Assembly (NCBI GenBank): GCA_965208755.1
Contig: OZ242353.1
Location: forward strand, 3,866,341 to 3,930,340
Source: Candidatus Multivorans sp.
GTDB taxonomy: Bacteria > Acidobacteriota > Thermoanaerobaculia > Multivoradales > Multivoraceae
Reading direction: 5' to 3'
Length of the DNA: 64,000 bases
The notes under the pieces are model-generated. The model was not told where the DNA came from and ran no database searches. It saw only the letters and a list, made by a program, of their open reading frames with translations. Shown here one piece after another: positions 28,158 through 64,000 of the stretch (position 1 is its first letter; each line of letters opens with the position of its first letter). A program made the translations under genes and the position numbers.

Positions 28158-28765
28158 CGATTCAGCTCTACCACTGTCAGGGCGCCCGCTCGCTGCGTGC
28201 GGTGTGGACGCTGGAGGAGATGGGCATCGACTACGACCTGCACGTCTTGCCCTTCCCGCCGCGGGTGTTCAAGAAGGACTACCTCGGAACCAACCTCCTG
28301 GGCACGGTTCCCTACATGATCGACGGCGATGTCCACATGACGGAGTCTTCGGGGATCGCGAAGTACCTGGTCGACCGCTACGGCCCGACCCCGATCGGCG
28401 TGGATGTGGACGACCCGGAGTACGGCGCGTACCTCAACTGGCTGTTCTACAGCGACGCGACGCTGACCTTCCCGCAGACGCTGTTCCTGCGCTACACGCG
28501 GCTCGAGCCCGAGGAGCGCCGGGTCCCGCAGGTCGCGGAGGACTACCGGAAGTGGTTCCTGGGCCGGCTGCGGCTGGTCGAGTCGGCGACCTCGGACGGC
28601 CGCGAATTCCTGTGTTGCGGCCGCTTCACGATCGCCGACATCTGCGTCGGCTACGGCCTGAAGCTCGCGGCCTCGCTCGGCATCGACGACTTCGGCGACA
28701 ACGTCCGCCGCTACTGGACGGGCCTGCAGGAAGTCCCCTCGTACCAGCGGATCCGCGAGGTCTAG
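28153..28765 (+). CDS. Glutathione S-transferase
   Basis: GTG start in a GTGA overlap with the crotonase stop. GST N-terminal thioredoxin-like motif and C-terminal helical domain. About 204 aa. Confidence 0.65.
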
Positions 28766-40412: not shown

Positions 40413-40446
40413 CCGAGCGCGTCGCGACATCGGTTACACCCGCCTA

Positions 40447-40608
40447 GGCGAGCGCCGGAAGGCCGTCCCTGCGGCCGCTCGCGCTTGATCGGACGATGAG
40501 GAGTCGGCGCTCGCTGCGGTCGGCTGCGCTCCGGTTGGGCGTCAGTCGATGTAGGGCATCGGCCGTCGCTTGCCGACAGCCCGCGGGGACGGCCTTCCGG
40601 CGCTCGCC
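40447..40608. repeat. 162-bp element bounded by 28-bp near-perfect terminal inverted repeats. MITE-like, or a long stem-loop RNA.
   Basis: GGCGAGCGCCGGAAGGCCGTCCCTGCGG at 40447-40474 versus CCGCGGGGACGGCCTTCCGGCGCTCGCC at 40581-40608. They are reverse complements with a single mismatch. Confidence 0.5.
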
Positions 40609-40946
40609 CAGGCTGGAGGTTGTCTATGTGGCGTCCCGGTGGCCTGCGGTTCTGGCTCGTGCACCCGCAGAGGAGGTTAGAGTCCTGCGTACAGTGATTG
40701 ACGAGGGATCCCCGAATGCGTAGAGAATCGCAAAGCGACCGACAGCGGCAGGACCACCGGCCCTTCAAGTCGGTCGCCGAGGTTCAGGACTTCTTTCGGC
40801 AGTGCGATGCGGATCAGGCTCGCGGAGTCGAGCCCGACTGGGACGAGCACCTGGTAGTGATCCGGGAGTCGCGGAGACGCGGCAAGTCCGGGAACTGAGT
40901 CTAGGTTGCTGGCCGCCGGTGGGAACCGTATGAGGCGGTCACCGCC

Positions 40947-48774: not shown

Positions 48775-49612
48775 GATGAAGCGGAGTCTCACGGAACGGG
48801 CGGTGTTGACGCAGCTCGCGGCGTTGCTGCTAGCGGCATTGGTGCTCGCGGCGGCGCCCGCGGCAGGGCAGGACACCGACTACAGGGCGCCGCGCACCCA
48901 CGACGACAAGCCGGATCTCAACGGGATCTGGCAGGCGCTGGGCGCGGCCCACTGGGACATCGAACCGCACGCCGCGCGTCACGGCCCGGTGGTCGAGATG
49001 GCGGCGCTGGGCGCGATTCCCGGCGGTCTCGGCATCGTCGAAGGCGGCAGAATTCCGTACCTGCCGGAGGCCCTGCAGAAGCGCGATCAGAACCGCGAGA
49101 ACTGGCTGGCGCTCGATCCGGCGGTGAAGTGCTACATGCCGGGCATCCCTCGCGCCAACTACATGCCCTTCCCGTTTCAGATCGTCCAGACACCCGAACA
49201 TGTGCTGATCGCTTACGAGTTCGCCAGCGCCAGCCGCGTGGTGTACATGGACAGGGAGGGCTTCGAGGCTCCGTTCGACACCTGGATGGGACACTCGATC
49301 GGGCGCTGGGAAGGGGAGACGCTGGTGGTCGACGTGACGAGCCAGGTGCCCGATACCTGGCTCGATTCGAGCGGCAACCACCACACGGACGCGATCCACG
49401 TCGAGGAGCGCTGGACCGCGATGAGCCCCCATCACCTCCAGTACGAGGCGACGATCACGGACGAGAACGTCTACAGCGAGCCCTGGAAGATCAGCCTGCC
49501 GCTCTACCGCCGGGTTGACCCGAACGTCCAGCTACTCGAGTTCAAGTGCGTCGAGTTCGCCGAGGAGCTGATGTACGGCCACCTGCGCAAGGGCGCCGAC
49601 CCGGGTCCCTGA
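48775..49612 (+). CDS. Secreted hypothetical protein (family A)
   Basis: RBS GGAGGAGG. Start MKRSLTERAVLTQLAALLLAALVLAAAPAAGQ. Shares PDLNG/PDLTG and IGRWEGETLVVDVT / IGWWEGDTLVVETT blocks with 50088-51188. Confidence 0.55.
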
Positions 49613-49640
49613 CCGGCACCGCCACGAAGAGGAGAACAGC

Positions 49641-50067
49641 GATGAAGTTCCAGCGAATCGTCCTACTGGCAGCAGGCCTGGCTCTGGTGCTCGCCATCCC
49701 GCTTGCCGCTCATCACGCCTTCTCGGCCGAGTTCGACGCCGATCGGCCGCTCCAGCTTCGCGGCAAGGTGACGAAGATGGAGTGGATCAACCCCCACGCC
49801 TGGATTCACCTGGAGGTGATGAATGACGACGGCAGTGCGACCGTCTGGATGGTCGAGGGCGGCACGCCGAACACGCTCGCCAGGCGCGGCTTCACGAAGA
49901 GGTCGCTTCTGCCGGGGACCGAGATCGTCGTCGACGGCTACCAGGCGAAGGACGGCTCGAACAAGGCGAACGGCCGCGACCTGACCTTCCCGGACGGCCG
50001 CAAGCTGTTCATGGGTTCATCCGGCACGGGCGCCCCGCGCGACGGCCGGGATCCGACCGAGCAGTAG
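49641..50067 (+). CDS. DUF6152-like small secreted protein
   Basis: RBS GAGGAGAA. Signal peptide then HHAFSAEFD...VTKMEWINPHAWIHLEV, typical of DUF6152. Confidence 0.55.
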
Positions 50068-50087: not shown

Positions 50088-51188
50088 CTACTGGCCGCCG
50101 CTGGCCGCGCTGCGCGTCTCGTCCTCGAGCAGTCGCGCGCCCCTGAGGATGTTGCCCATCGCGTAGTTCCCCTCGTGGCAGGCGTACTCGTAGACCTTGG
50201 CCGGCGTGCCGGGCCACAAGTACTCGCCGCTCCAGGGCGCGCTCCACACGGTCGGATCCTCGACCGTGAAGGCGTAGAGCAGGTCGTCCGCGTTGACCCG
50301 GGTGAAGCGCTCGGTCACCTTGAGGTTCCGTGAGGCGAGGAAGAGCGCCGGACGGTCGATGAAGTTCGTGGTCTCGACCACGAGCGTGTCGCCCTCCCAC
50401 CAGCCGATCGAGTCGCCGAGCCAGCGGCGCTCGTCCTCCGGGATGTGCTCGCCGCCGATGCGGACGATGCGGGCGTCGTGGACCATCTCGACCAGGATCA
50501 TCAGGTGGTCCTCGGTCTGCACGATCCGCTTGGCGTTGTTGTAGAGCACGGGCAGCATGGGCGGCCCACCGGTGGAGCCAAAGCCGATCAGGCAGCGTTC
50601 GGGGACGCCCAGAGTCTCCGGACCGTCGTACGGACCGGGGCCTTCGATCTCGAGCCACCAGGCGGTGCCGTCGTTGCCGCGTCTTCGCCCGCGCCGCTCG
50701 GACAGCCGCTGCATCGTCTCGGCGGTCAGTTGCGGCATCCTGCCGTTCGCCGGGTCGACGATGATCGAGGTTCGGAACCTGCCGTCGATCGAGAACACGT
50801 CACTGCCGCGATCCGTCCAGAAGTTGTTGTAGCCGCCGACGTTGCCGGCGCCGCTCGTCTCCCGGAACTCGTCGCCCAGGCCGATCGGCGGCGCGCCGCC
50901 GGGCGGGGGCGGTTCGTCGATCTGGCGGGTAGCGGCCCGGGCCGCCACCCGCTGGCGCTCCCGTTCGACGATCTCCTGCGCCTGCTCGGACGTCAGGTAC
51001 AGGTTGTCTCCGAACTCCCGCGGACGCTGCAACGGCGTCAGCGTGGCGATCTCGTAGTCGCCCGTGAGGTCGGGACGGCCCGAGGCCGTGCGCGGGATCG
51101 CGTCGTCGTCGGCGGCAGGCGCGGCGGGCGCCGCGAGCAAGACGATGGCGGCGGCCGTGGCGGCAGCGAGGGAGACTCTGCTCTGCAT
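50088..51188 (-). CDS. Secreted hypothetical protein (family A paralog)
   Basis: Signal peptide. Block similarity to 48775-49612. Confidence 0.55.
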   Translation of the reverse strand: MQSRVSLAAATAAAIVLLAAPAAPAADDDAIPRTASGRPDLTGDYEIATLTPLQRPREFGDNLYLTSEQAQEIVERERQRVAARAATRQIDEPPPPGGAPPIGLGDEFRETSGAGNVGGYNNFWTDRGSDVFSIDGRFRTSIIVDPANGRMPQLTAETMQRLSERRGRRRGNDGTAWWLEIEGPGPYDGPETLGVPERCLIGFGSTGGPPMLPVLYNNAKRIVQTEDHLMILVEMVHDARIVRIGGEHIPEDERRWLGDSIGWWEGDTLVVETTNFIDRPALFLASRNLKVTERFTRVNADDLLYAFTVEDPTVWSAPWSGEYLWPGTPAKVYEYACHEGNYAMGNILRGARLLEDETRSAASGGQ

Positions 51189-51374
51189 GGTGGCTCTCCT
51201 TATCGATTGCCGGGGGGCTCCGTTATACCAGCATGCGGTGGCGTCGGGAACTACGTAGGAAGCTGGCCAAGCGGCTGGCGAACGGGGTTCTGAATCCAGT
51301 TCTCGTCTAGGTCTGCAGGGGAAGTGATTCCCATAGCCGACTTGCTATAGGCTCAGTATTCCGTGCCCGATCCG

Positions 51375-51470
51375 CACCCGGTCCACAGGCCACGCGCGGC
51401 CCAGCTACCATCCGCTCGGACAGCAGATCCGGCCTGCTGCGCCTATCTCCTGCCCAGATTCAGTCGCTCT
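51375..51470. repeat. Degenerate copy of the ~190-bp intergenic repeat family (see 54722-54925 and 58975-59165)
   Basis: CACCCGGTCCACAGGCCACGCGCGGCCCAGCTACCATCCGC is similar to ACCCGGCTCGCAGGCCCACGGCGCG...AAGCTACCGCGCC in copy A. Confidence 0.35.
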
Positions 51471-51688
51471 TCGTTGCCGACGCCCGATCCTGCAAGACGC
51501 TAGCCCGATGCACGAGACGAGAACAGCGCCTGGCAGGCGTCCCGAGAGCGCGGGGGCGTTCCCAAGGTGATCGAGATGTTCCCAAAGGCTGGCGCCGCTG
51601 AGAACTGGTTCGAGGACACGACCGACCAGATGGCCGCGGTCGTTCCAGGCTTGGACTGCAAGCGCCTCCGGCACCGAGAGCTCGTCCC

Positions 51689-52729
51689 ATGAGGACGAAA
51701 CACACTGCTGTCAGTCTGTTCTCCGGAGCTGGCGGCATGGACATCGGAGTCGACCGAGCCGGATTCAAGACGGTTTGCGGGATTGACCTCGATCCTCACT
51801 GTGCAAACACACTCCGCCGTAACGGTCGCGGCAAGACAGTGTGGAACGCCGATGTTCGGATAGTCGATCCTGACCGTCTCCGAGATGCCCTCGGCATGAA
51901 GAGAGGCGATTTGCGGCTCCTTCATGGCGGGCCGCCGTGCCAGCCGTTCAGTCAGATAGGCAAACGCGCCGGCATTAGTGACCCGAGAGGCGCGCTCGTC
52001 TTTGAGATGGCGAGGTTCGCCGAAGCGCTTCGCCCGACGGCGGTGATGATCGAACAGGTCGCCTACTTTCTCCGTGCGAGAATGCCGGATGGCAGGCCGG
52101 TATCAGAGGCGCTGGCCGAGGAGTTTCGCCGCTTGGGCTACGACATGTTTGTGCGTGTTCTCGACGCGAGCCAGTATGGTCTCCCGCAACGGAGGCAACG
52201 GGCTATCCTGGTATGCGTGCCGAGGGGGCAGCACTTCTGGTTCCCGCAGGGCAAAGGTGAATCCAAGACCGTCGGAGCCGCATTGCGTGGTCTTCCGGAG
52301 CCGGTTCGTCGCGGCGAGAAGCCAGCCCTGCCGAACCATGTCGACGTTACGCCAGACCGAGACCGGGAACGCATCTCATACGTGCCTGAAGGACTGTGGT
52401 TGTCCAAGTGCAAGGACGTTCCGCCGCAGATCATGCAGCGGCTCACCCGTAAGGACACCACGAAGTTCCGTCGGCTTGATCGAGCTTCGCTCGCGCCGAC
52501 TCTTCGGTGCGGTGAGGCTCCCTATCACCCGATCGCGGACCGGTACATCACACCGCGGGAGGCGGCACGGCTACAGAGCTTCCCGGACTCTCACGTCTTC
52601 ACTGGCCCGATTCGAGGTCGCAGCGGAAGTGTGCGGGACCTCGATCAGCATCGCCAAGTGGCGAATGCGGTGCCGCCGTTGCTCGCCCGCGTGGTAGCGA
52701 ACCAGCTGTCTGAGACGCTATGCCTGTAG
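51689..52729 (+). CDS. DNA (cytosine-5)-methyltransferase
   Basis: Motif I LFSGAGG, motif IV GGPPCQPFS, motif VI EQV. Confidence 0.85.
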   Translation: MRTKHTAVSLFSGAGGMDIGVDRAGFKTVCGIDLDPHCANTLRRNGRGKTVWNADVRIVDPDRLRDALGMKRGDLRLLHGGPPCQPFSQIGKRAGISDPRGALVFEMARFAEALRPTAVMIEQVAYFLRARMPDGRPVSEALAEEFRRLGYDMFVRVLDASQYGLPQRRQRAILVCVPRGQHFWFPQGKGESKTVGAALRGLPEPVRRGEKPALPNHVDVTPDRDRERISYVPEGLWLSKCKDVPPQIMQRLTRKDTTKFRRLDRASLAPTLRCGEAPYHPIADRYITPREAARLQSFPDSHVFTGPIRGRSGSVRDLDQHRQVANAVPPLLARVVANQLSETLCL

Positions 52730-53682
52730 TTGCGGAACTGTACGGGCAGACCCTCGACGACCGCATTGATCCCAGCCTTTGCCGAACCGCTCAGTGCCCG
52801 TTCATTGGGGCGATTTGCGATGGTGGGGGAAACCGCGATATGGCGCGAGTCAGCGCCTCGGATTTAACGCTTGGCCACCTTTTCTCACGCTCGGTGGGGC
52901 AGGAGACCGAGGGCTGGTTGCCGTGCGGCGTCTGCTCCGTGCGCACTAGCAGCAACAAGGCCTGGGCAATCTGTCCTCATCGCCTGTTTGGCTTCGGTCC
53001 GAACGGTGTATCTCCCAGGCACCGTGATCTGGCTCAGCGGGTGTTTCGCCTCGCGGGCTTCGAGCCAGGCCAACTGGTAGGCGTCTGGCCGGAGATCACC
53101 CTGTCTGAGATAGGTGAAGGCGGCCAGCAGTTCAGGTACCGACTGGACTACGTTCTTCGGGCCATGGACGCTGCTTCGTCGCCGCCGATTATCGTTGAAG
53201 TCATGACGTGCTCGACATCGGGGGGCAAGAAAGCAAAGGGCACAGACATTCAGGCGGCTTTCAAGCGCGCCGTACTGTTCGCTCACACGCCCGCAAAGGA
53301 GGAAGTGGCATCTCCTGGCGTCAACCTGCGGCAAGTTTGGGCGCGGATGGCTTCTCAACTCGTGGCTAAGTCCGAAGCCGCGAACAGCTGGGGCGGCCGG
53401 ACCATCTGGATCGTGCAGGACCTGCTCGCCGACTACATTCGCACACAAACCGCTCTACCGTTGGATGATCTGCACTCCGACGACTGGTCGCCTCACGAGG
53501 TCAACATGGTGGTGGCCGATCTGGATGGGCCAGTGGCTCTTTACGCGGGACCCATCCGTTCTCAGAACGGAGACCGGCGCTGCTGGCTTGAGATCCTCGG
53601 CGCTCCTCATCTCCCTTCTCTCGCGTCCATGACTAGGAAGTTGAACGACGTTCAGCCGTTAGCGGTCGTCGCGGCCCTCTAG
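52720..53682 (+). CDS. NotI-family type II restriction endonuclease
   Basis: N-terminal Cys cluster and WAICPHRLFGFGPNG block aligned by eye to NotI (TGTCPF...C...GVCVVN...WLVCPNR...LFGYGP). Start overlaps the MTase stop by 10 nt. Confidence 0.65.
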   Translation: MPVVAELYGQTLDDRIDPSLCRTAQCPFIGAICDGGGNRDMARVSASDLTLGHLFSRSVGQETEGWLPCGVCSVRTSSNKAWAICPHRLFGFGPNGVSPRHRDLAQRVFRLAGFEPGQLVGVWPEITLSEIGEGGQQFRYRLDYVLRAMDAASSPPIIVEVMTCSTSGGKKAKGTDIQAAFKRAVLFAHTPAKEEVASPGVNLRQVWARMASQLVAKSEAANSWGGRTIWIVQDLLADYIRTQTALPLDDLHSDDWSPHEVNMVVADLDGPVALYAGPIRSQNGDRRCWLEILGAPHLPSLASMTRKLNDVQPLAVVAAL

Positions 53683-53693
53683 GGAAGGCGACC

Positions 53694-54107
53694 ATGGTTG
53701 ACACCGTGTCTCGGGAACGCCGGAGCGAGATTATGGCCCTCGTCAGGTCGAAGGACATGAAGCCCGAGATGGCGGTGCGCCGGATCACTCATGCGATGGG
53801 CTACCGCTACAGGCTTCACCGGAAGGAACTGCCAGGAAGGCCGGATCTGGTGTTTCCGGCCCGCAGCAAGGTGATCTTCGTTCACGGTTGTTTCTGGCAC
53901 CAGCACTCACCTTGCAAGAATGTGCGAGAACCGAAGTCGAACCGAGACTACTGGCTCCCGAAGCTCAGACGGAACGTCGAGCGAGATGTGGAGAACCAAG
54001 CGCGGTTGTCCGAGATCGGTTGGCGAGCGTTGGTCCTGTGGGAGTGCGAGGTGCGAAGTCGGAACGATACAGCCCACCGCATCCGAGAGTTCTTGGAGCG
54101 TCCATGA
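53694..54107 (+). CDS. vsr: Very-short-patch repair endonuclease
   Basis: LVRSKDMKPEMAVRR...FVHGCFWHQHSPCK...WECE, canonical Vsr. Confidence 0.85.
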   Translation: MVDTVSRERRSEIMALVRSKDMKPEMAVRRITHAMGYRYRLHRKELPGRPDLVFPARSKVIFVHGCFWHQHSPCKNVREPKSNRDYWLPKLRRNVERDVENQARLSEIGWRALVLWECEVRSRNDTAHRIREFLERP

Positions 54108-54283
54108 GGTGTCGGGACGAGCCGAGGTCCAAGCGCCCCTGCGGGCGTCCGAAGCGTCTGAGGCCGGAGTTTCCCGATCCGACGCGACGAGGGACGGTCT
54201 GGGAGAACAACGTTTGCCAACGCGAAGGCTGCTTGGTCCGAGCCTCCGGCCTAGGAGCCGACTGAAGGCCTGACGACACGCTG

Positions 54284-54622
54284 GTGGACCTCCAAGGCTG
54301 GCTTCCCGTGATCGGCGTCGCCCTCGCAGCGACCGCTCTGCTCACTAGAGTCGTCTGGCGGCGAGCTGAGGCGCAGGGAACCAAGAGGGCGCTTCGCTTG
54401 GAGATCTTCGAGCAGGCCAGAACCGGGGAACTCCGAGGGCCGGCGCTTCGCCACAAGGCCCAAGATGCTGGCTTGGCGAAGCGAGAGGTTCAGTTCGTCG
54501 TCGAGTACCGAGGGAAGCAGAACAAACTCCTGAATCACGGGTACGGGGCTTCGAGCGAGCAAGACGAAGCCGAAGCTGCAAGACTCACGCAGGAGTTTGA
54601 GCGCATCCTGCTAGGCGACTGA
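54284..54622 (+). CDS. Small hypothetical protein with an N-terminal TM helix
   Basis: GTG start. WLPVIGVALAATALL TM segment, the rest is charged and helical. Weak call. Confidence 0.3.
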   Translation: MDLQGWLPVIGVALAATALLTRVVWRRAEAQGTKRALRLEIFEQARTGELRGPALRHKAQDAGLAKREVQFVVEYRGKQNKLLNHGYGASSEQDEAEAARLTQEFERILLGD

Positions 54623-54721
54623 GCCCGCCTGGCTGGCTTCCGATGCAGGCCCACGGCGTCCCGTGACCGGGGACCGGAGGAGAGGGTTGGCGCCGGGCCT
54701 TGTTGGTCGCCATGCACAGTG

Positions 54722-54925
54722 GGCACGAAACGCCCCGCCTATTCGCCGAGCGCCGGGAGCGACCCGGCGCCTGGTGTCGACTGTTGTATTCGGCAGGAGA
54801 CCCGGCTCGCAGGCCCACGGCGCGACGACAACCAACCACGAGAAGCTACCGCGCCGCCGATTGCGCGTCAAACGAACCGGCCAGCGGTCGGGCAGGGGCC
54901 GAGACGGATGCCGAGGTGAGACTAG
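54722..54925. repeat. ~190-bp repeat family copy A, ending in a truncated 3-codon ORF with RBS
   Basis: Shares GGGAGCGACCC...GGCAGG..CCGGCTCGCAGGCCCAC.GCGC..GACGAC.AACCAACGAG...GAGACGATG with copy B at 58975-59165. About 70-75% identity over 150+ nt. Confidence 0.55.
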
Positions 54926-54942
54926 GGCTTGGCCGCGCCTGG

Positions 54943-55641
54943 TCAGGGGAGGGCGGCCGTCGCCGCCGCGACCATCAAGCCCGCCAGACCGATCTCCAGC
55001 ACCTTTCCCGCGGCCCAGTTGATCGCGGCGATAGCGAACCCCGCCGGCCTGGACAGCCGGAACACGGCGGCAGCGCCCAGGCCGAGCAGAAGAAAGGACC
55101 AGACGAAGACGAAGGAGCTGACCATCAGGTCGAGAATGGCGCCGGGCGCGATGGCGGCCACGACCGCCAGCGCGTCCAGCCCTGAGCCCGCTTCTCTGTT
55201 CAGGACGTTCCGTTGAAACTCAAGGAGGCCGCCGACCTGGGTGGTTCTCAAGGCCGAGCGGACCACTAGCCCCACGGCGCTGATCAGGCTGACGTGGAGC
55301 GCCAGCGACAGGCACTGTTCGATGCTCGCCCGACCCTTCAGGGCCGCCGCCAGGAGCCGGAGCACGACGGTCTCGAACAACAGCGCGAGCGGGATGGCCG
55401 CGAGGAAGAACGAGACCATCCCGTATGGAATCTCGAGAGAGTCACCGATGCTCTCCATCGCATCGCCGAACCACCAGGCAGTCAGCAGACCGGCCAGGAG
55501 CACCAGGAAGATGCCCAATGCCAGGCCTGCGCCCCACGGATGGTGCTCGCGGATGACGACGAAGCTCTTCCGCGGAGCGGTGAAGATCCAGATCAGGGCT
55601 TTGAACCAGAGGTGACGGCTGGCCTCCGGTCGCTCGCCCAT
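54943..55641 (-). CDS. Yip1-like polytopic membrane protein
   Basis: N-terminus WFKALIWIFTAPRKSF then about 5 TM helices. Paralog of 55687-56466 (NAWLKALIGIFTSPRQSFEII). Confidence 0.55.
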   Translation of the reverse strand: MGERPEASRHLWFKALIWIFTAPRKSFVVIREHHPWGAGLALGIFLVLLAGLLTAWWFGDAMESIGDSLEIPYGMVSFFLAAIPLALLFETVVLRLLAAALKGRASIEQCLSLALHVSLISAVGLVVRSALRTTQVGGLLEFQRNVLNREAGSGLDALAVVAAIAPGAILDLMVSSFVFVWSFLLLGLGAAAVFRLSRPAGFAIAAINWAAGKVLEIGLAGLMVAAATAALP

Positions 55642-55686
55642 TTGGGGGACTGTATCGACTGGGGATCGACCTGCGCGATGGCCGCG

Positions 55687-56466
55687 TCAGGTCGGCATGA
55701 GTCGGGCTGCCAGGCCAATCGTCGCGGCCGCGAAGGCCGTCGTCGTTGCCCAGTAGATGGCGGCCAGCAGCCAGGCCTTGCGCTGTGGGACCTCGAACGC
55801 CGCGGCGGCGCCTAGGGCGAGCAACGCGAGAAACCAGACCGTGAACGGATTGATGCTCGCGTAAACGACGTTGAGCGTCGCGTTGTCGCCGGCCAGCAGC
55901 AGGTCGAGTCCCATCGGCGCCTGGAGGTCCAGTTGCGATCGGATCGCGTCGGTGCCACGGACGTGGAGGAGAAGGAAGTTGGCCCAGCTCTTGAGGTGGG
56001 TGATCACGGCCAGATGGACCATCAGGGAGAGGGACTGGACAAATCGGGGCCGTCCCTTGAGTGCTACCGCCAACAGCCACACGAAGACGGTCTGAACCGC
56101 GAGTCCGAGGGCCAGTTGCAGGGGTCCGGTGGCCATCGAAACCCATCTCGCCGCCGCGGCCGTCTGCTCGATCTGCGCCATCATGGCGTCGACCTGTTCC
56201 GGGTTGCCCGGCATCCGCTCCGTCAACTGGTTCCGCATCGCCTGGAGACCCAGAGGCGCCGAGGACATCGCCAGGGCGGCGCTTCCGGCTACGAGAAGAA
56301 GCAGCGGCGCGAGCCATGGGTTGCGGCGCCGGATGATCTCGAAACTCTGCCGCGGCGACGTGAAGATCCCGATGAGCGCCTTGAGCCAGGCGTTCCGGCC
56401 CTGTGAGTGGTCGCCGGTGGCTTTGATGTTGCGTTCGTCGTGGATGCTGCCTGCGTGCTCGGTCAT
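55687..56466 (-). CDS. Yip1-like polytopic membrane protein
   Basis: Internal Met start MTEHAGS at 56466 in an ATGA overlap with the ABC ATPase stop. The track ORF extends to 56604 inside the ATPase gene. Confidence 0.55.
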   Translation of the reverse strand: MTEHAGSIHDERNIKATGDHSQGRNAWLKALIGIFTSPRQSFEIIRRRNPWLAPLLLLVAGSAALAMSSAPLGLQAMRNQLTERMPGNPEQVDAMMAQIEQTAAAARWVSMATGPLQLALGLAVQTVFVWLLAVALKGRPRFVQSLSLMVHLAVITHLKSWANFLLLHVRGTDAIRSQLDLQAPMGLDLLLAGDNATLNVVYASINPFTVWFLALLALGAAAAFEVPQRKAWLLAAIYWATTTAFAAATIGLAARLMPT

Positions 56467-57248
56467 GTCGCGCTCCTGTTGCCGATCCAGGAGAGGCGGG
56501 AGAACCTCTCGCGCCTGGAGATACTGAGAATGAGGTTCTCGAGCCGCCCGGCGCCGTCTTCTCCCTCGGCGGCTGGCAGTTCGCGGAACTCCTCCCGGGA
56601 GCACGACAGGAGGACCTTGCCGTCCCTGATGACGGCGATGTGGGTCGACACGCGCTCGACGTAGTCGAGCATGTGGGAAGTGAGGAAGACGGCTGCGCCC
56701 TGCTCCGCCATCTGCTGCAGGATCGACATGACGGTCCGGGCGCTCAGGGCGTCCATACCCTCGAACGGCTCGTCGAGGAACAGGACCCGCGGCGCGTGAA
56801 GCGTCGCTGCCGCGAGGCGGATCTTCTTCCTCATCCCGTGCGAGTAGGTCGTGATCGGCCGTTTGGCTGCGCCTTCGAGGTCGAAGACCGAGAGCGCTTC
56901 GTCGGTCCGCTGCCCGGCGTCCTCGCGGCTCAGGCCGTAGATGCGGGCATAGGAGAGCAGCAGCTCTTCGCCGGTCAGGCTCTCGAACATCACGCTGTGG
57001 TCGGGGACGATGCCGAGTTGTTGCTTGAGTTCCGTGTCGTTGATGTCCATCGGCCTGCCCAGCAGGCGGACCGTGCCGCTCGTGGGATTGAGCACCCCGG
57101 TCAGCATGGACCAGGTCGTCGTCTTTCCGGCCCCGTTGGGACCGACGAAGCCCAGGATCTGTCCCTCCCGGACGTCCAGGTCGACGCCGTCGACGACGAC
57201 GTTGCCTCCGTACGACCGGGTCAGGTTCTCTGCCTTGATTACTTCCAT
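56463..57248 (-). CDS. ABC transporter ATP-binding protein
   Basis: Walker A GPNGAGKTT, signature-like YSHGMRKK, Walker B VLFLDEP. Confidence 0.85.
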   Translation of the reverse strand: MEVIKAENLTRSYGGNVVVDGVDLDVREGQILGFVGPNGAGKTTTWSMLTGVLNPTSGTVRLLGRPMDINDTELKQQLGIVPDHSVMFESLTGEELLLSYARIYGLSREDAGQRTDEALSVFDLEGAAKRPITTYSHGMRKKIRLAAATLHAPRVLFLDEPFEGMDALSARTVMSILQQMAEQGAAVFLTSHMLDYVERVSTHIAVIRDGKVLLSCSREEFRELPAAEGEDGAGRLENLILSISRRERFSRLSWIGNRSAT

Positions 57249-57300
57249 CCGTGAGGTGTTCCTTGTGGTTGCAGGGGCGGTAGAGGTAGGGGCAGGGGTT

Positions 57301-58887
57301 CTAGTGGGAGGAGTCCTTGAGCAGGAGTTCGCGGCCGCGGGCCGCCAGCATCCGTCTCTGCCTTTGGCGAGACGCGTAGGCGGCCGCTGCGGCGAGGAGG
57401 AGTACGCCGACCGCGATGAGCGCGGCTGTCAGCGGCGTCACGCGCTGGCGTTCCAGGAACGCCCAGAGGAGAAAGGAGAGGGCGCCCGGCAGGCCGACGA
57501 GGTGTGCGGCCACCAGGGTGGCGCCGAGCCTGGCGCCGTCGGGATCGTGCAGGAACCCCTCGTTGCGTTGAGGCCAGCGAAGCTGAATCAGGCCGTACGT
57601 TGCGGTGGCCATGAGGAATCCCGCGAGCATCAGGCAGACGGCGACGAAGAAGAACGGCCAGCCGAACCACTCAAGCGGCGTCAGTCCCAGGATGAACGCG
57701 ATGACGAAGACGATGACCGCGTTCATCGCACGGCCGGGTGCGCTGAAGATCCGCCGGACCGGGAACGGCAGCGTTAGCGACTCCCGCCATACGTGGCAGG
57801 TCGGGGGCTGCTTTCCGATGCGGAACTCGTGCAGAAAGATGGCGAAGAGAGCCGCCGGCCCTACCGCGAAGCCGCCTGCGGTGGGCACCAGGACGAGGGA
57901 GGTGCCCAAGACCAACGCGAGAACCAGACGTGCCGGTTTGAGACGCAGGAGGCACTCGCTCTCGACCAGCGTCAGGACGCCCGCCGGAGTGAGATGCTTC
58001 GCCTTGCGGAGCAGCCGGGCCACCGGCAGGCTCCCGGAAGCCGCGCGCCGGTCGCCGCCAGGACGCTCCAGGTAGCCGCGGAGCAGCAGCCGGTTCTCCA
58101 GTACGACCAGGGCGCCGAGAATCGCGAACAGGCTGCCGAGTCTCGCCAGATTCGACGCCGAAAGCCCCGGTTGGTGGACGATGCCGGCGACCAGCCCGGG
58201 CGGCGTGTAGCCGAGCCCGCCGAGAACGGCCGACTCCTCGATCGCCCGAGTGAGCCCTTCGGAAGCGATCTCTCCGCCGAAGGCCAGCACCCCGAGCATG
58301 ATCGCGCCCTGGCACGCGGCAATGATCGCCACGATGGCCAGGGCGCCGAGCTTGCCTTCGACCGGCCGGTTGACGAGAAGCGACAGGATCGCCGCGGTAC
58401 GGCCGAAGATCCACACCAGGCCCAGGATGGCGAGCAGGGTGATCGGCGCTCCGCTGACGCCTCCCGATCTCATGACGGCGAGGTAGACGCCGGCGGGACC
58501 GAGGACGGGGAGCCAGTACCCGATCGTGCTCAGGGCAAACCGGAGACCGTAGAGGTCCCGGAAGCTGACTGGCAGCCGCAGCAGATCCTCCAGGTCGAGC
58601 AGAAAGATCACGGGCGCTCGAAGCAGCACCTGGGCGAGCAACGCGACCGCCGTCACGGAACAGGCGATCAGGCTCAGGAGGTTTCTCCGCAGGACCTCGC
58701 TCTCGATGGCGAAGATCGCCGGAAGCAGCCCCAGGGTCGCGACAGTCGCGAACGCGAGGAACAGGACGGCAACGAAGATCGCCACCGCCAGCGGCTGCTT
58801 GCTCCGCCGGACCGCGTCCGGCAAGGCCAGCCGCGCGAGCGTCAGCAGCAGATCGGCCCGGCTACCCGGGTGCGTGAACGTCGCCAT
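57301..58887 (-). CDS. Large polytopic membrane protein, putative ABC-2-type permease partner
   Basis: 528 aa with at least 12 hydrophobic segments. Lies directly upstream of the ABC ATPase on the same strand. Confidence 0.55.
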   Translation of the reverse strand: MATFTHPGSRADLLLTLARLALPDAVRRSKQPLAVAIFVAVLFLAFATVATLGLLPAIFAIESEVLRRNLLSLIACSVTAVALLAQVLLRAPVIFLLDLEDLLRLPVSFRDLYGLRFALSTIGYWLPVLGPAGVYLAVMRSGGVSGAPITLLAILGLVWIFGRTAAILSLLVNRPVEGKLGALAIVAIIAACQGAIMLGVLAFGGEIASEGLTRAIEESAVLGGLGYTPPGLVAGIVHQPGLSASNLARLGSLFAILGALVVLENRLLLRGYLERPGGDRRAASGSLPVARLLRKAKHLTPAGVLTLVESECLLRLKPARLVLALVLGTSLVLVPTAGGFAVGPAALFAIFLHEFRIGKQPPTCHVWRESLTLPFPVRRIFSAPGRAMNAVIVFVIAFILGLTPLEWFGWPFFFVAVCLMLAGFLMATATYGLIQLRWPQRNEGFLHDPDGARLGATLVAAHLVGLPGALSFLLWAFLERQRVTPLTAALIAVGVLLLAAAAAYASRQRQRRMLAARGRELLLKDSSH

Positions 58888-58974
58888 CGAGTCCTGGGTG
58901 TCGTTCTAGCCGGCTCTGAGGAAAGGTGGGCCGGCACCTGGACTGGTGGCGGGCCGAATCGGCCGCTCTGCGCA

Positions 58975-59165
58975 GGAGAAACGAGACCCCCCGCCGACTT
59001 GCCTGACGCAGGGAGCGACCCTGAGCCCAGGGGCGACGGCTAGGTCTGGCAGGGGGTCCGGCTCGCAGGCCCACTGCGCCTCTGACGACCAACGAGTGGA
59101 CGCTAGCGCGCCGGGATAGCGCCCGTCAAACATCTCTGCGGGGAGGAGAGACGATGGCAACGAAG
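58975..59165. repeat. ~190-bp repeat family copy B, ending in RBS+ATG of a 31-codon ORF (59154-59249, +)
   Basis: See copy A. Ends GGGGAGGAGAGACGATG. Confidence 0.55.
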
Positions 59166-59262
59166 AGGACGCGGGAGGTCGACCTGACCGGGGCCGCTCG
59201 CGGGGGATCTCCGTTGCCATCGAACTCTCTCTACGCCGATCTACCGTGAGTGAGGGCGGGGC

Positions 59263-59550
59263 CTACTTGCAGAAGACCAACGCAACAGGTGCGTACGCTC
59301 CGATAATGGCGGCCCCGACACCGCCGGTGGCGGCGCCGGTTCCCATGGCAACGAAGCTGAAGGCGAGCACCGCGCCGACGCAGCTCCAGTTCGTTCCGCC
59401 GGTTGCCGTCGCGAGCAACGCTTCCCCGGTCTGCTCGGCCTCGACGGGGATGCTGGCCGTCGGGACGGCGGGTCCACTGGCGCCCGTGGCCGGGGCCAGA
59501 GCGAACAGAAACGTGAGAAGGAGGGTTGCGGCTACTGCTTTCTTGGACAT
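59263..59550 (-). CDS. Small secreted peptide with a double-glycine-like motif and a Gly-rich two-Cys C-terminus (bacteriocin-like precursor)
   Basis: N-terminus MSKKAVAATLLLTFLFALAPATGASG is Sec-like. An internal VEAEQTGEALLATATGG|TNWSC... resembles a GG-leader. A GTG start at VEAEQ would give an 18-aa GG-leader. Core TNWSCVGAVLAFSFVAMGTGAATGGVGAAIIGAYAPVALVFCK has 2 Cys. Confidence 0.5.
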   Translation of the reverse strand: MSKKAVAATLLLTFLFALAPATGASGPAVPTASIPVEAEQTGEALLATATGGTNWSCVGAVLAFSFVAMGTGAATGGVGAAIIGAYAPVALVFCK

Positions 59551-59619: not shown

Positions 59620-59979
59620 TCAGAAGAACATGGCGCAGGCCATGCCGGCGCCTGCCAGCGCCAGACCAGGGCCTGCACCGACGCCGGTCAACGCGAGAGC
59701 GAAGCCAGCGCCAGTGGCGGCTCCGCACAGGAAGTCGGAAGTGGGGCCTGCCCCTGCTGTTCGAGCCAGAACCCGGTCGGACAGGGACTGCGGCCCGAGG
59801 CCGGGGGCAGGCTGGAGGGCGGACACGTCTGGGGCCGGGGTTGGGACCGGCCCGAGATCCCAGGTGGCCCTCAGCGTGGCCGCGCCTGGGTCCTGCGCCT
59901 CGCCGGCGGTTGGTGTCGCCATAGCGGCGCCGGCAAGGAACAGGAAGAGGACGGAAAGAAAGGCAATGCGTAGTTTCAT
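59620..59979 (-). CDS. Small secreted peptide, leader-conserved paralog 1 (Gly/Ala-rich hydrophobic two-Cys core)
   Basis: MKLRIAFLSVLFLFLAGAAMATPTAGEA...ATWDLGPV is a conserved leader. Core ...SDFLCGAATGAGFALALTGVGAGPGLALAGAGMACAMFF. RBS AAGGAGCC. Confidence 0.5.
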   Translation of the reverse strand: MKLRIAFLSVLFLFLAGAAMATPTAGEAQDPGAATLRATWDLGPVPTPAPDVSALQPAPGLGPQSLSDRVLARTAGAGPTSDFLCGAATGAGFALALTGVGAGPGLALAGAGMACAMFF

Positions 59980-60043
59980 CGAGAGTTGGCTCCTTCGAGG
60001 TCTATTGGGTTGTGCGTGAGACGGACGCGTAGTTCGCTGTGGC

Positions 60044-60257: not shown

Positions 60258-60569
60258 CTAGAAGAGGATGGGAGGAAGGCACTTGTCGGGACCGGGCCAC
60301 GGGCTCGGGAACGGCCAAGGAACCGGGAAGGGGCGGGGCGAGGGAGGAAAGGGAAAGCTGTCGCAGGGCCAGGGGTAGTACACAGCCGTCCGTGTCGGCG
60401 CATCCGTCCGAAGGACGTAGCCGTCGGGGGCGGCAACCGGCCCGAGATCCCAAGCGGCCACCAGCGAGATGTCGTCCGGGCCCCGCGCCTCGCCGGCGGT
60501 CGGCGTCGCCATGGCCGCGCCGGTGAGAAACAGGAAGAGGAGGGAAAGGAAGGTAGTGCGTAGTTTCAT
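60258..60569 (-). CDS. Small secreted peptide, leader-conserved paralog 2 (Pro/Trp/Phe-rich two-Cys core)
   Basis: MKLRTTFLSLLFLFLTGAAMATPTAGEA...AAWDLGPV leader is near-identical to paralog 1, including about 50 nt upstream. Core YYPWPCDSFPFPPSPRPFPVPWPFPSPWPGPDKCLPPILF. ATGA overlap with the C39 gene stop. Confidence 0.5.
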   Translation of the reverse strand: MKLRTTFLSLLFLFLTGAAMATPTAGEARGPDDISLVAAWDLGPVAAPDGYVLRTDAPTRTAVYYPWPCDSFPFPPSPRPFPVPWPFPSPWPGPDKCLPPILF

Positions 60570-61186
60570 TGAGAGCTATCTCCTTCAAGGGTTGTGGGTT
60601 GGGGTGAAACGGACGGCATCGTGGCCGTCCGGGAAATCGGTGGCGGGCCGCTGGTGAAGGACAGAACGACGCCGTCCCAGGATCGTTCGAAGGTCCTGGA
60701 ACTCATGCGCAGCCGCCCGAGGGAGGGGTCGTCGATGACGAGTTCGTCGCCGGCGCTGCGAATGACGACGAAGTGATCGCCGTGCACGTGCGCGATCGCG
60801 GGGAGCGGGATGTCGTGGAGCCGCTGGACCGGTAGCCGGAGGCCCTGGCTCGTCACGCCTCGCTTTTCCGCGGCCTTCTTGAGCGCGAGCAGGCTGGTGC
60901 CGTCCGGGCCGGTTCCGGTGGCGAGCTCGAGCTCGGCGAGGGTCGTATCCTGGATGCCCCAGTGATCGAGGACCATCTTCAGGGCCGCCGGGCCGCAGTC
61001 GGCGCGTCTCTGCTGGCGAACGATCTCGCCTGGGGCCGGCGCCGATGGGTCGAGCGTGGCGGCCCAGGCCAGCCGGTCCATGGTCGGCCCCAGGGCCCGG
61101 GCCGCGACCGTCACGAGACCGGCCGCGAGCAGCAGACCGGCAGCGGCCGCGTGCGGTGGGCGAATCCGGAATCGCTCAGAGTGCAT
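60566..61186 (-). CDS. Standalone peptidase C39 (bacteriocin-processing cysteine peptidase) domain protein with an N-terminal TM or signal anchor
   Basis: Internal Met start MHSERFRIRPPHAAAAGLLLAAGLVTVAARALG. QQRRADCGPAALKMVLDHWG (catalytic Cys) ... LPAIAHVHGDHFVVI (catalytic His). No ABC domains are fused. The track ORF extends to 61336 overlapping the upstream gene. Confidence 0.7.
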   Translation of the reverse strand: MHSERFRIRPPHAAAAGLLLAAGLVTVAARALGPTMDRLAWAATLDPSAPAPGEIVRQQRRADCGPAALKMVLDHWGIQDTTLAELELATGTGPDGTSLLALKKAAEKRGVTSQGLRLPVQRLHDIPLPAIAHVHGDHFVVIRSAGDELVIDDPSLGRLRMSSRTFERSWDGVVLSFTSGPPPISRTATMPSVSPQPTTLEGDSSQ

Positions 61187-61682
61187 CGCCGCCGGATTCC
61201 AGAAAGGAGCGCCAGGCGATCTCTGGACGCTCTCCGGTGGTGACCGCGAGGATCCGGGACTGGCCGTCGACCAGGAACACCAGCGGTACATGGACGACGC
61301 CGAATCGCTTCGAGACGGCGCCGTCCGGATCGGCAATGGCCGCGTGGACGCCGTCGCCGTCGAGTTCGGGCGAATCCGAGCCGGCGACGACCGCGATCAG
61401 GTCGAAGGTCGGACCCTCCGTCCGTGCCATGCGGCGCAGGGCGGTGATGGTGCGGTCGCAGTTGCCGCAGCCGGCCCTGGCGAAGGTCACGACCCGCAGC
61501 CGGCCGGGAGCGGCCGGCAGGGCTTCACCGTCCGCGAGGCCCGGCAGCGCGGGGAACAGCGCGCCGACTTCGGGGCGCTGGGCCTGCCGCGCGCGGATCC
61601 CGGATTCGAACCAGATCAGACCTCCGAAGGGGGCGAGGACGGCCACGACGACGGTGGCGATGGCAAGTCGGCGGCGGTTCAT
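61176..61682 (-). CDS. Membrane-anchored thioredoxin-fold thiol-disulfide oxidoreductase (TlpA/ResA-like, CxxC)
   Basis: Internal Met start MNRRRLAIATVVVAVLAPF (TM anchor). CGNC active-site motif in ARAGCGNCDRT. Overlaps the C39 gene by 11 nt. Confidence 0.65.
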   Translation of the reverse strand: MNRRRLAIATVVVAVLAPFGGLIWFESGIRARQAQRPEVGALFPALPGLADGEALPAAPGRLRVVTFARAGCGNCDRTITALRRMARTEGPTFDLIAVVAGSDSPELDGDGVHAAIADPDGAVSKRFGVVHVPLVFLVDGQSRILAVTTGERPEIAWRSFLESGGDAL

Positions 61683-62105: not shown

Positions 62106-64000
62106 CTAGCTCAGCAGGAGCCGGAGATCGTCGGCAGTGAGATCCCGCAGGGACGATCCGCCGCCTTCGAGGATCGCGTCGGCGATCTGCCGCTTCGATC
62201 GCTGGAGTTCCAGCATCTTCTCTTCCACGGTGTCACGCGCGATCAGGCGATAGGCGAACACAGGCTGGGTCTGGCCGATGCGGTGGGTGCGGTCGATGGC
62301 CTGCGCCTCGACGGCCGGGTTCCACCACGGATCGAGCAGGAAGACGTAACCGGCGGCGGTCAGGTTCAGACCGACGCCGCCCGCCTTCAGGCTGATCAGG
62401 AAGATGTTCGTGTCCGGGTCGTTCTGGAAGTGGTCGACCACCTCGCCGCGGTTCCGGGTCTGGCCGTCGAGGTAGGCGTAGGGGACGGCCTGCTCCTCGA
62501 GGTGGCTCCGCACGTAGGCCAGCAGCGACGTGAACTGGGAGAACACGAGGCACTTGTGGCCCTCGTCGAGCACCTCGGACACCTGCTCGAACAGCGACTC
62601 GAGCTTGGCGCTTCCGGCGTCGTTCCAGGACTCGTCGATGAGCCCCGGGTGGCAGGCGACCTGCCGCAGGCGGAGCAGCGCCTCGAGCACCTGCATCGCC
62701 GATCCGCCGACGCCCTTGTCCTCGACCTGCTTCAGCAGGCTGTCGCGGTAGCCGGCGCGGAGCTGATCGTAGATCTCCTGCTGCTTCGGGTTCAGGGTGC
62801 ACTGCAGGATCTGCTCGGTCTTCTCCGGCAGGTCCGGGAGCACCTCTCGCTTGCTGCGGCGGAGGATGAAGGGCCGCAGACCCTTGGCGACGAGGGCGAG
62901 TTCCTGTTGGCTCGGCGCCCGGCCGCCGGCAAGCACGTCCAGGGCCGGCAGCCGGCCGAGCAGTCCCGGGTTGAGGAACTCGAAGATCGAGCCGAGTTCG
63001 CCCAGGTGGTTCTCGATCGGGGTGCCGGTCAGCGCCAGGCGGTGCTGGCCGTTCAGCAGGCGGCAGGCCTTGGCGGTCTGCGAGGTCGCGTTCTTGATCG
63101 CCTGGGCTTCGTCGAGGATCACGGTGTCGAAGTCGACGGTCGCGAGGTAGCCGATGTCGCGGCGGACGGTGCCGTAGGTCGTGACGACGAGGTCGGCGGA
63201 GTCGACCTCGTCCCGCAGATCCTCGCGGTCGCGACCGGCGTACTCCAGCACCTTGAGGTCCGGCGTGAAGCGGGCGGCCTCGTCGATCCAGTTGTACACC
63301 AGGCTGCGCGGCGCGACGACCAGGTAGGGCAGTTTCGTCGTCCGCGAGGCGGTGCGGTACATGCGAAGCAGCGCCAGCGCCTGGATCGTCTTGCCCAGCC
63401 CCATGTCGTCCGCGAGCACGCCGCCGAGGCCGAACTCGCGCAGGAAGCACAGCCAGCCCAGGCCCAGGCGCTGGTAGGTGCGGAGCGTGCCGACGAAGCT
63501 GCGCGGCTCCTTCTTCGGCTTGATCGACGAGAAAGTGCTCAGCTTCTCGCGCAGCTCGGCGAAGGTCTTGCTGACGTTCACCGGCGGCGTCACGGCCAGG
63601 AGCGCGTCGACCAGCAAGGCCTGCGAGGGCAGGAAGCGCAGTCCCTCGTCGCTCGAGGCCTGCGCAAGCTGACTGAGCGAGCCGTAGTTCTCGACCCAGG
63701 CTGCCGGCAGCAGTCCCTTCGAGCCGTCGTCCAGCTCGACCGATCGCCGCCCCTCCGAGATCGCCGACAGGATCTCCGAGAACTCGATCTGGTCCCCGCC
63801 GAAGTCGATCTGGCCGCTGAGTTCGAACCAGTCGACACCGCTCTCGATACGTAACGCCGGCGGGCTTGGCGGCCGGATCGAGGCGCCGTGGGCTTCCACC
63901 TCCCATCCCTCCGCGAGCAGCGGCTCCGCGACCGCGGGCAGGTCGCGCGGCTCGAGCTCCAGGCTATGGCCGGCCTTGGACGCCACCGGCTTCAGGTCGA
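62106..64000 (-). CDS. SNF2-family DEAD/DEAH-box helicase (RapA/HepA-like), N-terminus outside the window
   Basis: LADDMGLGKTIQALALL (motif I), DEAQAIKN (motif II), helicase C-terminal motifs (QTRNRGEVV...LISLKAGGVGLNLTAA...DPWWNPAVEAQAIDRTHRIGQ). The frame stays open to the window edge beyond the first Met at 63986. Confidence 0.8.
   Translation of the reverse strand, partial: DLKPVASKAGHSLELEPRDLPAVAEPLLAEGWEVEAHGASIRPPSPPALRIESGVDWFELSGQIDFGGDQIEFSEILSAISEGRRSVELDDGSKGLLPAAWVENYGSLSQLAQASSDEGLRFLPSQALLVDALLAVTPPVNVSKTFAELREKLSTFSSIKPKKEPRSFVGTLRTYQRLGLGWLCFLREFGLGGVLADDMGLGKTIQALALLRMYRTASRTTKLPYLVVAPRSLVYNWIDEAARFTPDLKVLEYAGRDREDLRDEVDSADLVVTTYGTVRRDIGYLATVDFDTVILDEAQAIKNATSQTAKACRLLNGQHRLALTGTPIENHLGELGSIFEFLNPGLLGRLPALDVLAGGRAPSQQELALVAKGLRPFILRRSKREVLPDLPEKTEQILQCTLNPKQQEIYDQLRAGYRDSLLKQVEDKGVGGSAMQVLEALLRLRQVACHPGLIDESWNDAGSAKLESLFEQVSEVLDEGHKCLVFSQFTSLLAYVRSHLEEQAVPYAYLDGQTRNRGEVVDHFQNDPDTNIFLISLKAGGVGLNLTAAGYVFLLDPWWNPAVEAQAIDRTHRIGQTQPVFAYRLIARDTVEEKMLELQRSKRQIADAILEGGGSSLRDLTADDLRLLLS

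Follow-up and report, generated by a model that had tools for sequence, protein, structure and literature searches.

A candidate cis-regulatory leader RNA occurring as two paralogues per genome in a clade of Acidobacteriota

A 64,000-nucleotide (nt) stretch of 'Candidatus Multivorans' DNA (contig OZ242353.1 of GCA_965208755.1, hereafter the window), drawn from a metagenome assembly, contains two homologous intergenic blocks of about 150 nt, copies A and B. The best reading of these blocks is that they represent an undescribed cis-regulatory leader RNA, a riboswitch candidate, with two paralogues per genome. Each copy would consist of a promoter and, behind it, a ~150-nt structured 5′ leader RNA, encoded on the minus strand and acting in cis on the downstream gene, and the two types would be ancient paralogues within one Acidobacteriota clade; we assign this interpretation a probability of about 0.65. 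An earlier sequence-only reading of the same DNA had described the copies as plus-strand repeats ending in a ribosome-binding site (RBS) and ATG, and had offered scars of serial insertion, a mobile promoter/leader cassette or a structured RNA family as explanations. Its structured-RNA and promoter/leader options were right in kind, but the functional strand appears to be the minus strand, the element is not mobile and the RBS and ATG are not part of it.

That copies A and B resemble one another is borne out by each comparison made. Their pairwise alignment has a mean column identity of 79% over ~230 columns, a repeat finder returns a 136-nt ungapped match at 71% identity (54688-54823 versus 58944-59079), and a covariance model built from orthologues, run over the window with filters off, yields two matches only, at 160 bits (B) and 155 bits (A); the similarity is therefore not at background. 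The next-best match to the model (28568-28639, minus strand; 22 bits, rough E-value 0.004) covers 72 nt of the 150 model positions and is probably noise. A third copy, previously placed at 51375-51470, went undetected in pattern, repeat and covariance-model searches, and its local alignment score against copy A (21) is at chance level (shuffle mean 20.75, maximum 30); this region sits just within the left edge of an inserted restriction-modification (R-M) cassette that is described below. A 14-nt sequence shared by the insertion edge and the core (GCAGGCCCACGGCG, at 54645-54658 and 54809-54822) was considered as a partial duplicate of the core and rejected, its score of 28 falling within the shuffle range (maximum 30). 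The extent of the element also had to be redrawn. The A/B block itself is conserved, and among ~45 orthologous copies, read on the plus strand, this conservation begins at 54688 in A, extends down to the start codon at 58887 in B and ends sharply at CGTCAAAC (54875 in A, 59134 in B), leaving the supposed GAGACG(G)ATG or RBS and ATG ends outside the block.

The distribution of the element is narrow and regular. One genome per species was scanned for exact matches to a 22-nt segment of the core (CCGGCTCGCAGGCCCACNGCGC), and 48 loci were found. Of these, 41 belong to 32 species genomes of Acidobacteriota, which carry labels such as Thermoanaerobaculia, 'Ca. Multivorans' and Holophagales, and the other seven are chance matches within coding regions of unrelated phyla. 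Relatives often carry two matches 3.5-5.3 kb apart on one strand, like the window, and alignments resolve these into two paralogous types, A and B, each of which is nearly invariant between species while its flanks diverge. The two types align with each other almost gap-free over 150 nt, and the type A core of the window is identical to copies in other species. Over the 41 loci the covariance model recovered 54 copies, including the divergent type A of 'Ca. Multivorans' and one divergent type B, and six further copies came from metagenome loci; a large metagenome collection held the pattern in only five stretches of DNA, so that the gain in diversity was small. Counting the copies and mapping their contexts in relatives, a check that the sequence-only reading had proposed, thus revealed a consistent context, with the two types of each of the 32 genomes always at the same two syntenic positions.

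These positions are defined by the genes that follow. The ATG of a homologue of a 528-amino-acid (aa) membrane protein comes 55-58 nt downstream of each of the 30 type B copies, and that of a homologue of a 366-aa secreted protein 8-125 nt downstream of 25 of the 26 type A copies, the sole exception being copy A of the window, which is explained by the R-M insertion. A location directly upstream, on the same strand and consistent across species, as expected of a cis-regulatory leader, is therefore found in 30/30 and 25/26 copies, respectively. Between species the core is 83-95% identical, compared with 65-86% for the adjacent coding DNA (the first 600 nt of the downstream gene) and 55-69% for the upstream intergenic DNA. 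The neighbouring peptide genes, the operon encoding an ATP-binding cassette (ABC) ATPase and Yip1-like proteins, and the 366-aa gene are in conserved synteny in 20-30 loci, the count for the operon downstream of type B being 27-39. The copies had been thought to bracket three accessory modules; of the flanking genes, only the R-M trio proves to be accessory.

Base-pairing statistics, computed on 45 distinct cores, point to an RNA read from the minus strand. The closing stem, P1 (alignment columns 1-9 with 129-137), is paired in 99.5% of cells even though eight of its nine pairs vary, and nearly all of this variation consists of transitions that preserve pairing on one strand only; P1 and the lower part of P2 are robust. 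For the interior, the RNAalifold consensus combines P1 with P2 (15-18/122-125), P3 (25-29/101-105), P4 (30-40/74-82), P5 (44-46/68-70) and P6 (83-85/91-93), with 99.1% of cells paired versus 32-44% when the partners are slid. A rod-like model, which is the minimum-free-energy fold of individual sequences, comprises P1, P2 (15-25/115-125, extended by 28-32/110-114), P3 (37-46/100-109) and a hairpin (58-76/82-96) with a UCGCU cap, and has 89.7% of cells paired versus 44-50% slid. Each has support of its own: pair 71-87 of the rod occurs as G-C, G·U, A-U and C-G and its pair 69-89 changes to A-U in one locus (L018), whilst pair 40-74 of the consensus fold becomes U-A in another (L026) and its pairs 44-70 and 46-68 hold in a third group (L030). 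Compensatory changes are also seen at pair 73-85 (C-G, A-U, G-C) and pair 85-91 (U-A, G-C). The cells that are not Watson-Crick paired are strongly asymmetric between strands: one model has 258 G·U and 2 A·C cells, and the other has 427 and 30. On the plus strand the same helices drop to 82% and 72% paired, and the consensus fold is weaker (-28.0 versus -36.1 kcal/mol) and lacks the long-range stems.

Upstream of the core, every copy carries on the minus strand GTTTGACG, a 17-18 nt spacer of variable sequence, one of the hexamers TAGCTT, TAACTT, TAATTT or TAGCGT, ~7 variable nt, and then GTTGGTYGTC, which leads into the 150-nt conserved core. The hexamer TTGACG is invariant in all copies, 35-36 nt upstream of the first core base, and agrees with the sigma-70 consensus at five of six positions; the spacer is of 17-18 nt and the TANNNT pattern is kept, with the -10 box agreeing at only three of six. 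Such a conservation pattern suggests a sigma-70 promoter, from which the transcript would start at the core. In type B only, a 12-bp inverted repeat, GACGGACGCTAC-N9-GTAGCGTCCGTC, overlaps the -35 and -10 boxes (59106-59123; equivalents are present in L002, L006 and other loci) and might serve a dimeric regulator as its operator or, should the transcript begin further upstream, form an RNA hairpin.

In the mechanism that we propose, type B would control the operon for the 528-aa membrane protein, the ABC ATPase and YknW-like proteins, and type A the secreted 366-aa protein. The G/U-rich strand GUUGGUYGU at the 5′ end of the RNA would close the domain by pairing ~125 nt downstream to form P1, whose 3′ strand (columns 129-135) could instead pair with columns 139-146 in an anti-P1 hairpin. 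The latter is paired in 78.7% of cells, one lineage has a compensatory C-G to U-A change at pair 133-141, and blocking the 5′ strand of P1 in silico yields this hairpin. Since anti-P1 competes with P1, a signal that stabilises the domain upon binding, whether a small molecule or a protein, would free the downstream segment and re-route the later hairpins, thereby changing expression at the level of translation initiation or Rho-dependent termination. Candidate pairings that involve the Shine-Dalgarno (SD) sequence, namely an AGUCC loop with a GGACU SD in type B, CUCUC with GAGAG in type A, and the apical loop with GAGCGAC, were rejected; they are uncompensated across lineages and none is common to A and B. 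More specifically, the element might be a new riboswitch class, with two small-molecule-sensing aptamers per genome that co-regulate a YknW-type ABC export or immunity system, beside a cluster of C39 peptidase and secreted peptides, together with a widespread secreted lipocalin/FABP-like barrel protein; we regard this fuller proposal as tentative and, on balance, doubtful. If it is true, the support for both interior folds would reflect two states of the switch.

A number of observations weigh against a cis-acting leader RNA or temper the case for it. The two interior folds, rod and three-way junction, are mutually exclusive and fit about equally well. Double-sided covariation is limited to 2-4 pairs, arising mostly from the split between A and B and from a few single lineages, and the number of pairs with a change on both sides does not exceed that of the shuffle control. 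The covariation analysis suggested earlier therefore gave a mixed outcome, in which the pairing of P1 and the preference for G·U over A·C favour an RNA and the scarcity of double-sided pairs leaves the structure supported, not proven. Single-sequence folds of either strand are no stabler than shuffled sequences (z-scores -0.85 to +0.13), so the structural argument is a comparative one. A sigma-70 scanner calls neither promoter, a result attributable to the -10 box matching at just three of six positions, and it is by inference that we arrive at the transcript itself, as at the promoter, the mechanism of switching and the idea that a ligand exists. The element contains no intrinsic terminator, two 'terminator-like' matches near copy A being weak 5-6 bp stems inside it, nor any SD-sequestering helix common to types A and B. 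Finally, the range of the element is a single narrow clade; a check for divergent leaders at more distant homologues of the 366-aa gene (62-69% identity) revealed none, and the RNA is thus clade-restricted.

The exceptional copy A owes its context to an insertion. When the window is compared with uninterrupted long-form type A loci, homology extends on the leader side as far as 54680 (...GGCGCCAACCCTCTC) and resumes at 51238 (CCGCATGCTGGTATAACGG..., followed by the SD and ATG of the 366-aa gene), and the intervening 3,441 bp (51239-54679) have a GC content of 0.60-0.63 against 0.65-0.73 in the flanks. The four genes of this insert are absent from all other loci (~25 syntenic loci), in which the surrounding genes are syntenic. 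The break in homology, the lower GC content and the genes unique to the window together establish that a horizontally acquired R-M cassette has entered the type A 5′ untranslated region (UTR), and it has cut the type A leader off from its gene in this genome. The cassette lies antisense within the 5′ UTR of the 366-aa gene, and its 112-aa open reading frame (ORF) was missed by the gene caller of the source. Transcription from the orphaned putative promoter would run antisense into the R-M genes. On the gene side of the insertion is the motif GCTGGTATAACGG (51220-51232, minus strand; also given as TGGTATAAC), which is conserved in every long-form type A leader, 35-45 nt before the 366-aa ATG. 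The promoter scanner gives no call here, but the motif resembles an extended -10 element (TGnTATAAC) and, owing to this likeness, may act as an additional promoter, close to the 366-aa gene, through which expression of that gene continues after the insertion. An R-M cassette that uncouples a leader from its gene within the 5′ UTR constitutes a natural experiment.

The severed copy bears on a first alternative, in which the element is an independent gene for a trans-acting RNA of ~150 nt that has its own promoter and ends before the next gene, itself served by a separate promoter. Copy A has remained intact though detached, and long-form type A loci have a GC-rich hairpin and then the GCTGGTATAACGG motif between core and gene, both of which favour this model; the insertion may, however, be so recent that copy A has had no time to decay. 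In short-form type A loci only ~25-45 nt, with no terminator, separate the core from the ATG, type B lacks a U-tract terminator, and the element invariably lies immediately in front of the same two genes. We therefore consider a small RNA gene unlikely. About as unlikely is a second alternative, that the conservation operates at the level of DNA, as an extended promoter or operator bound by one or more transcription factors, with the long imperfect palindrome a feature of the duplex. The conserved -35 box is compatible with this, the type B inverted repeat (GACGGACGCTAC...GTAGCGTCCGTC) spans the promoter spacer, and many positions are invariant rather than covarying. Yet near-invariance over ~150 bp downstream of the promoter far exceeds the typical needs of an operator, a duplex DNA site would not show the tolerance of G·U with avoidance of A·C (258:2 and 427:30), and P1 varies almost wholly by transitions that keep the pairing of one strand only.

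Serial insertion at attachment (att)-type sites, the lead hypothesis of the sequence-only reading, and a mobile repeat of the miniature inverted-repeat transposable element (MITE) or repetitive extragenic palindromic (REP) kind are both very improbable. The core resembles MITE and REP repeats in being ~150 bp long, intergenic, GC-rich and imperfectly palindromic with inverted terminal segments (GTTGGTYGTC ... GRCGRCCRAY), and the point at which the R-M cassette entered is 8 nt away from the end of copy A. Those repeats are, however, dispersed in many copies and varying contexts with target-site duplications, whereas the present element has two copies at orthologous positions in each genome, none elsewhere in the window, no target-site duplication, and a strand asymmetry of pairing that points to RNA and not to DNA. 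The pattern is carried by just five metagenome stretches, the flanking modules are core synteny and not variable cassettes, and the third copy is at chance level. The neighbouring genes annotated between 46.9 and 64 kb include no integrase, transposase or recombinase, and the sole real insertion, that of the R-M genes, adjoins copy A without being delimited by repeats. That the block encodes a small protein or leader peptide is scarcely credible, for although a frame opened by GUG at alignment column 20 stays open to the end of the core in types A and B of the window, homologous cores contain frame-breaking indels of 1, 2 and 4 nt, stop codons interrupt this frame in the 'Ca. Multivorans' type A copies, variable columns show no codon periodicity (23/25/32 over the three phases) and invariant runs of 17-22 nt include would-be third codon positions.

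A cis-regulatory leader RNA of this kind matches no catalogued family. Rfam 15 gave no matches in the whole window at gathering thresholds, and a search of both regions with its 4227 models at E-values up to 10 returned only scattered microRNA and small-RNA noise far below threshold; full-text searches of one literature library found no paper on the element, on riboswitches of Thermoanaerobaculia, on 'Candidatus Multivorans' or on DUF6152, the family of a neighbouring gene. Lineage-restricted Rfam motifs such as Acido-1 and Acido-Lenti-1 exemplify orphan riboswitch candidates, or cis-regulatory 5′ leader motifs. In common with these, the element is noncoding, lies in the 5′ UTR on the strand of the gene, is conserved above the level of the adjacent coding DNA, has a closing P1 with a competing downstream hairpin, and occurs as paralogous copies before different genes of one genome; it differs in lacking any Rfam match in sequence or structure, in the uncharacterised nature of the genes regulated, in its two interior folds and in its very narrow range. 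Leaders of ribosomal-protein operons are of a protein-binding autoregulatory type, and EAR is a leader that mediates processive antitermination. Like them, the element is a long, irregular, conserved hairpin that would open an operon transcript, with invariant internal and apical loops as possible protein contacts. Its regulated units, however, lack an identifiable gene for an RNA-binding protein, and one of its targets is a single gene, for which processive antitermination makes little sense. The candidate would represent a structured regulatory RNA not described before, from an Acidobacteriota clade that is uncultured and little studied (Thermoanaerobaculia, 'Ca. Multivorans'), and would tie two uncharacterised gene sets, the 528-aa/ABC/YknW-like transporter and an unannotated family of > 8000 members, into one regulon, which would provide a handle on their function.

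Table 1. Positions in the window of the leader candidates, their putative promoter elements and the surrounding features
Feature	Position	Strand	Remarks
SNF2 helicase	62106-63986	-	
Redoxin-like protein		-	Between SNF2 helicase and C39 peptidase in minus-strand order
C39 peptidase (stand-alone)	60566-61336	-	
Three small secreted peptides	60258-60569, 59620-59979, 59263-59550	-	Followed by copy B
Long hairpin	59145-59231	-	Between upstream 95-aa peptide gene (stop at 59263) and type B promoter, ~15 nt upstream of -35 box
Type B putative -35 box, TTGACG	59124-59129	-	Invariant in every copy; no scanner call
Type B putative -10 box, TAGCGT	59100-59105	-	18-nt spacer; TANNNT kept, spacer sequence varies; 3/6 consensus matches
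Type B leader RNA core (candidate), 150 nt	58944-59093	-	Covariance model 160 bits; P1 = 59085-59093 with about 58957-58965
Type B 3′ leader, possible expression platform	58885-58943	-	CACC-AGUCCA-GGUG hairpin, GCCGGC hairpin, SD AGGA (58892-58895), AUG (58885-58887); conserved in all B loci
528-aa membrane protein	57301-58887	-	Multi-pass
Operon downstream of type B: 528-aa membrane protein, DrrA-like ABC ATPase, two Yip1/YknW-like membrane proteins	54943-58887	-	Pfam and NCBIfam matches; followed by copy A
Type A putative -35 box, TTGACG	54866-54871	-	Invariant; 35 nt before first core base in every type A copy; no scanner call
Type A putative -10 box, TAGCTT	54843-54848	-	17-nt spacer; orthologues TAGCTT, TAACTT or TAATTT, spacers 17-18 nt
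Type A leader RNA core (candidate), 149 nt	54688-54836	-	Orphaned in this genome; covariance model 155 bits
Inserted R-M cassette	51239-54679	+	Dcm 51689-52729, putative restriction endonuclease 52720-53682, Vsr 53694-54107, uncalled 112-aa ORF 54284-54622; Pfam matches
Displaced gene-proximal part of type A leader	51189-51238	-	With GCUGGUAUAACGG motif (51220-51232) and SD; aligns to long-form leaders of L008, L010, L016, L023, L033 and 'Ca. Multivorans'
366-aa secreted protein gene, normal type A target	50088-51188	-	25/26 type A copies upstream of homologue

All of the relevant genes are on the minus strand (Table 1). Type B always precedes the operon of the 528-aa membrane protein and ABC ATPase, to which one or two proteins of the YknW family also belong, and this operon adjoins the conserved cluster of C39 peptidase and secreted peptides. 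The 528-aa protein itself has no Pfam, NCBIfam or PDB sequence match; the type B target as a whole is predicted to be an exporter or protection-type ABC system. In the leader downstream of the type B core, the stem of the small hairpin with the AGUCCA loop changes from A-U to G·U to G-C across lineages. Within the peptide cluster, a 164-nt direct repeat of 80% identity (59837-60000 and 60427-60590) reflects the signal peptide and N-terminal part common to two paralogous small secreted peptides (MKLR..FLS.LFLFL.GAAMATPTAGEA), which lie downstream of the C39 peptidase and the redoxin-like protein in a cluster conserved across the clade. An ENA contig of the same organism ends at ~60258, inside this repeat.

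The 366-aa protein, the normal target of type A, has > 8000 homologues, all unnamed. It has no Pfam match and a PDB sequence search was empty, but an AlphaFold2 model of moderate confidence (pLDDT 73) contains a C-terminal barrel that matches FABP/lipocalin folds weakly in a fold search. The family possesses an invariant C-terminal YEYACHEGNY motif. Within the clade its gene is always convergent with a DUF6152 gene (49546-50067, plus strand in the window), and in distant relatives its homologues adjoin genes for TonB-dependent receptors.

Copy B had also been credited with a 31-codon ORF on the plus strand. The open frame exists mechanically, but it lies outside the conserved block and is the reverse complement of the long hairpin at 59145-59231; the RBS and ATG cues that had suggested a mobile cassette are artefacts of reading the wrong strand. 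The hairpin has a minimum free energy of -52.8 kcal/mol (z-score -1.85) and its arms covary between species, GAUGGCAACG/CGUUGCCAUC in one being replaced by GAUGGCCACG/CGUGGCCAUC in another, with a loop of varying length, whilst other lineages have a strong hairpin of unrelated sequence at the same place. It is probably a terminator-like or RNA-stabilising 3′-end hairpin without a U-tract. The longest inverted repeat of the window lies elsewhere, with arms of 43 nt (40439-40481 and 40574-40616) that are 86% complementary and separated by 92 nt.

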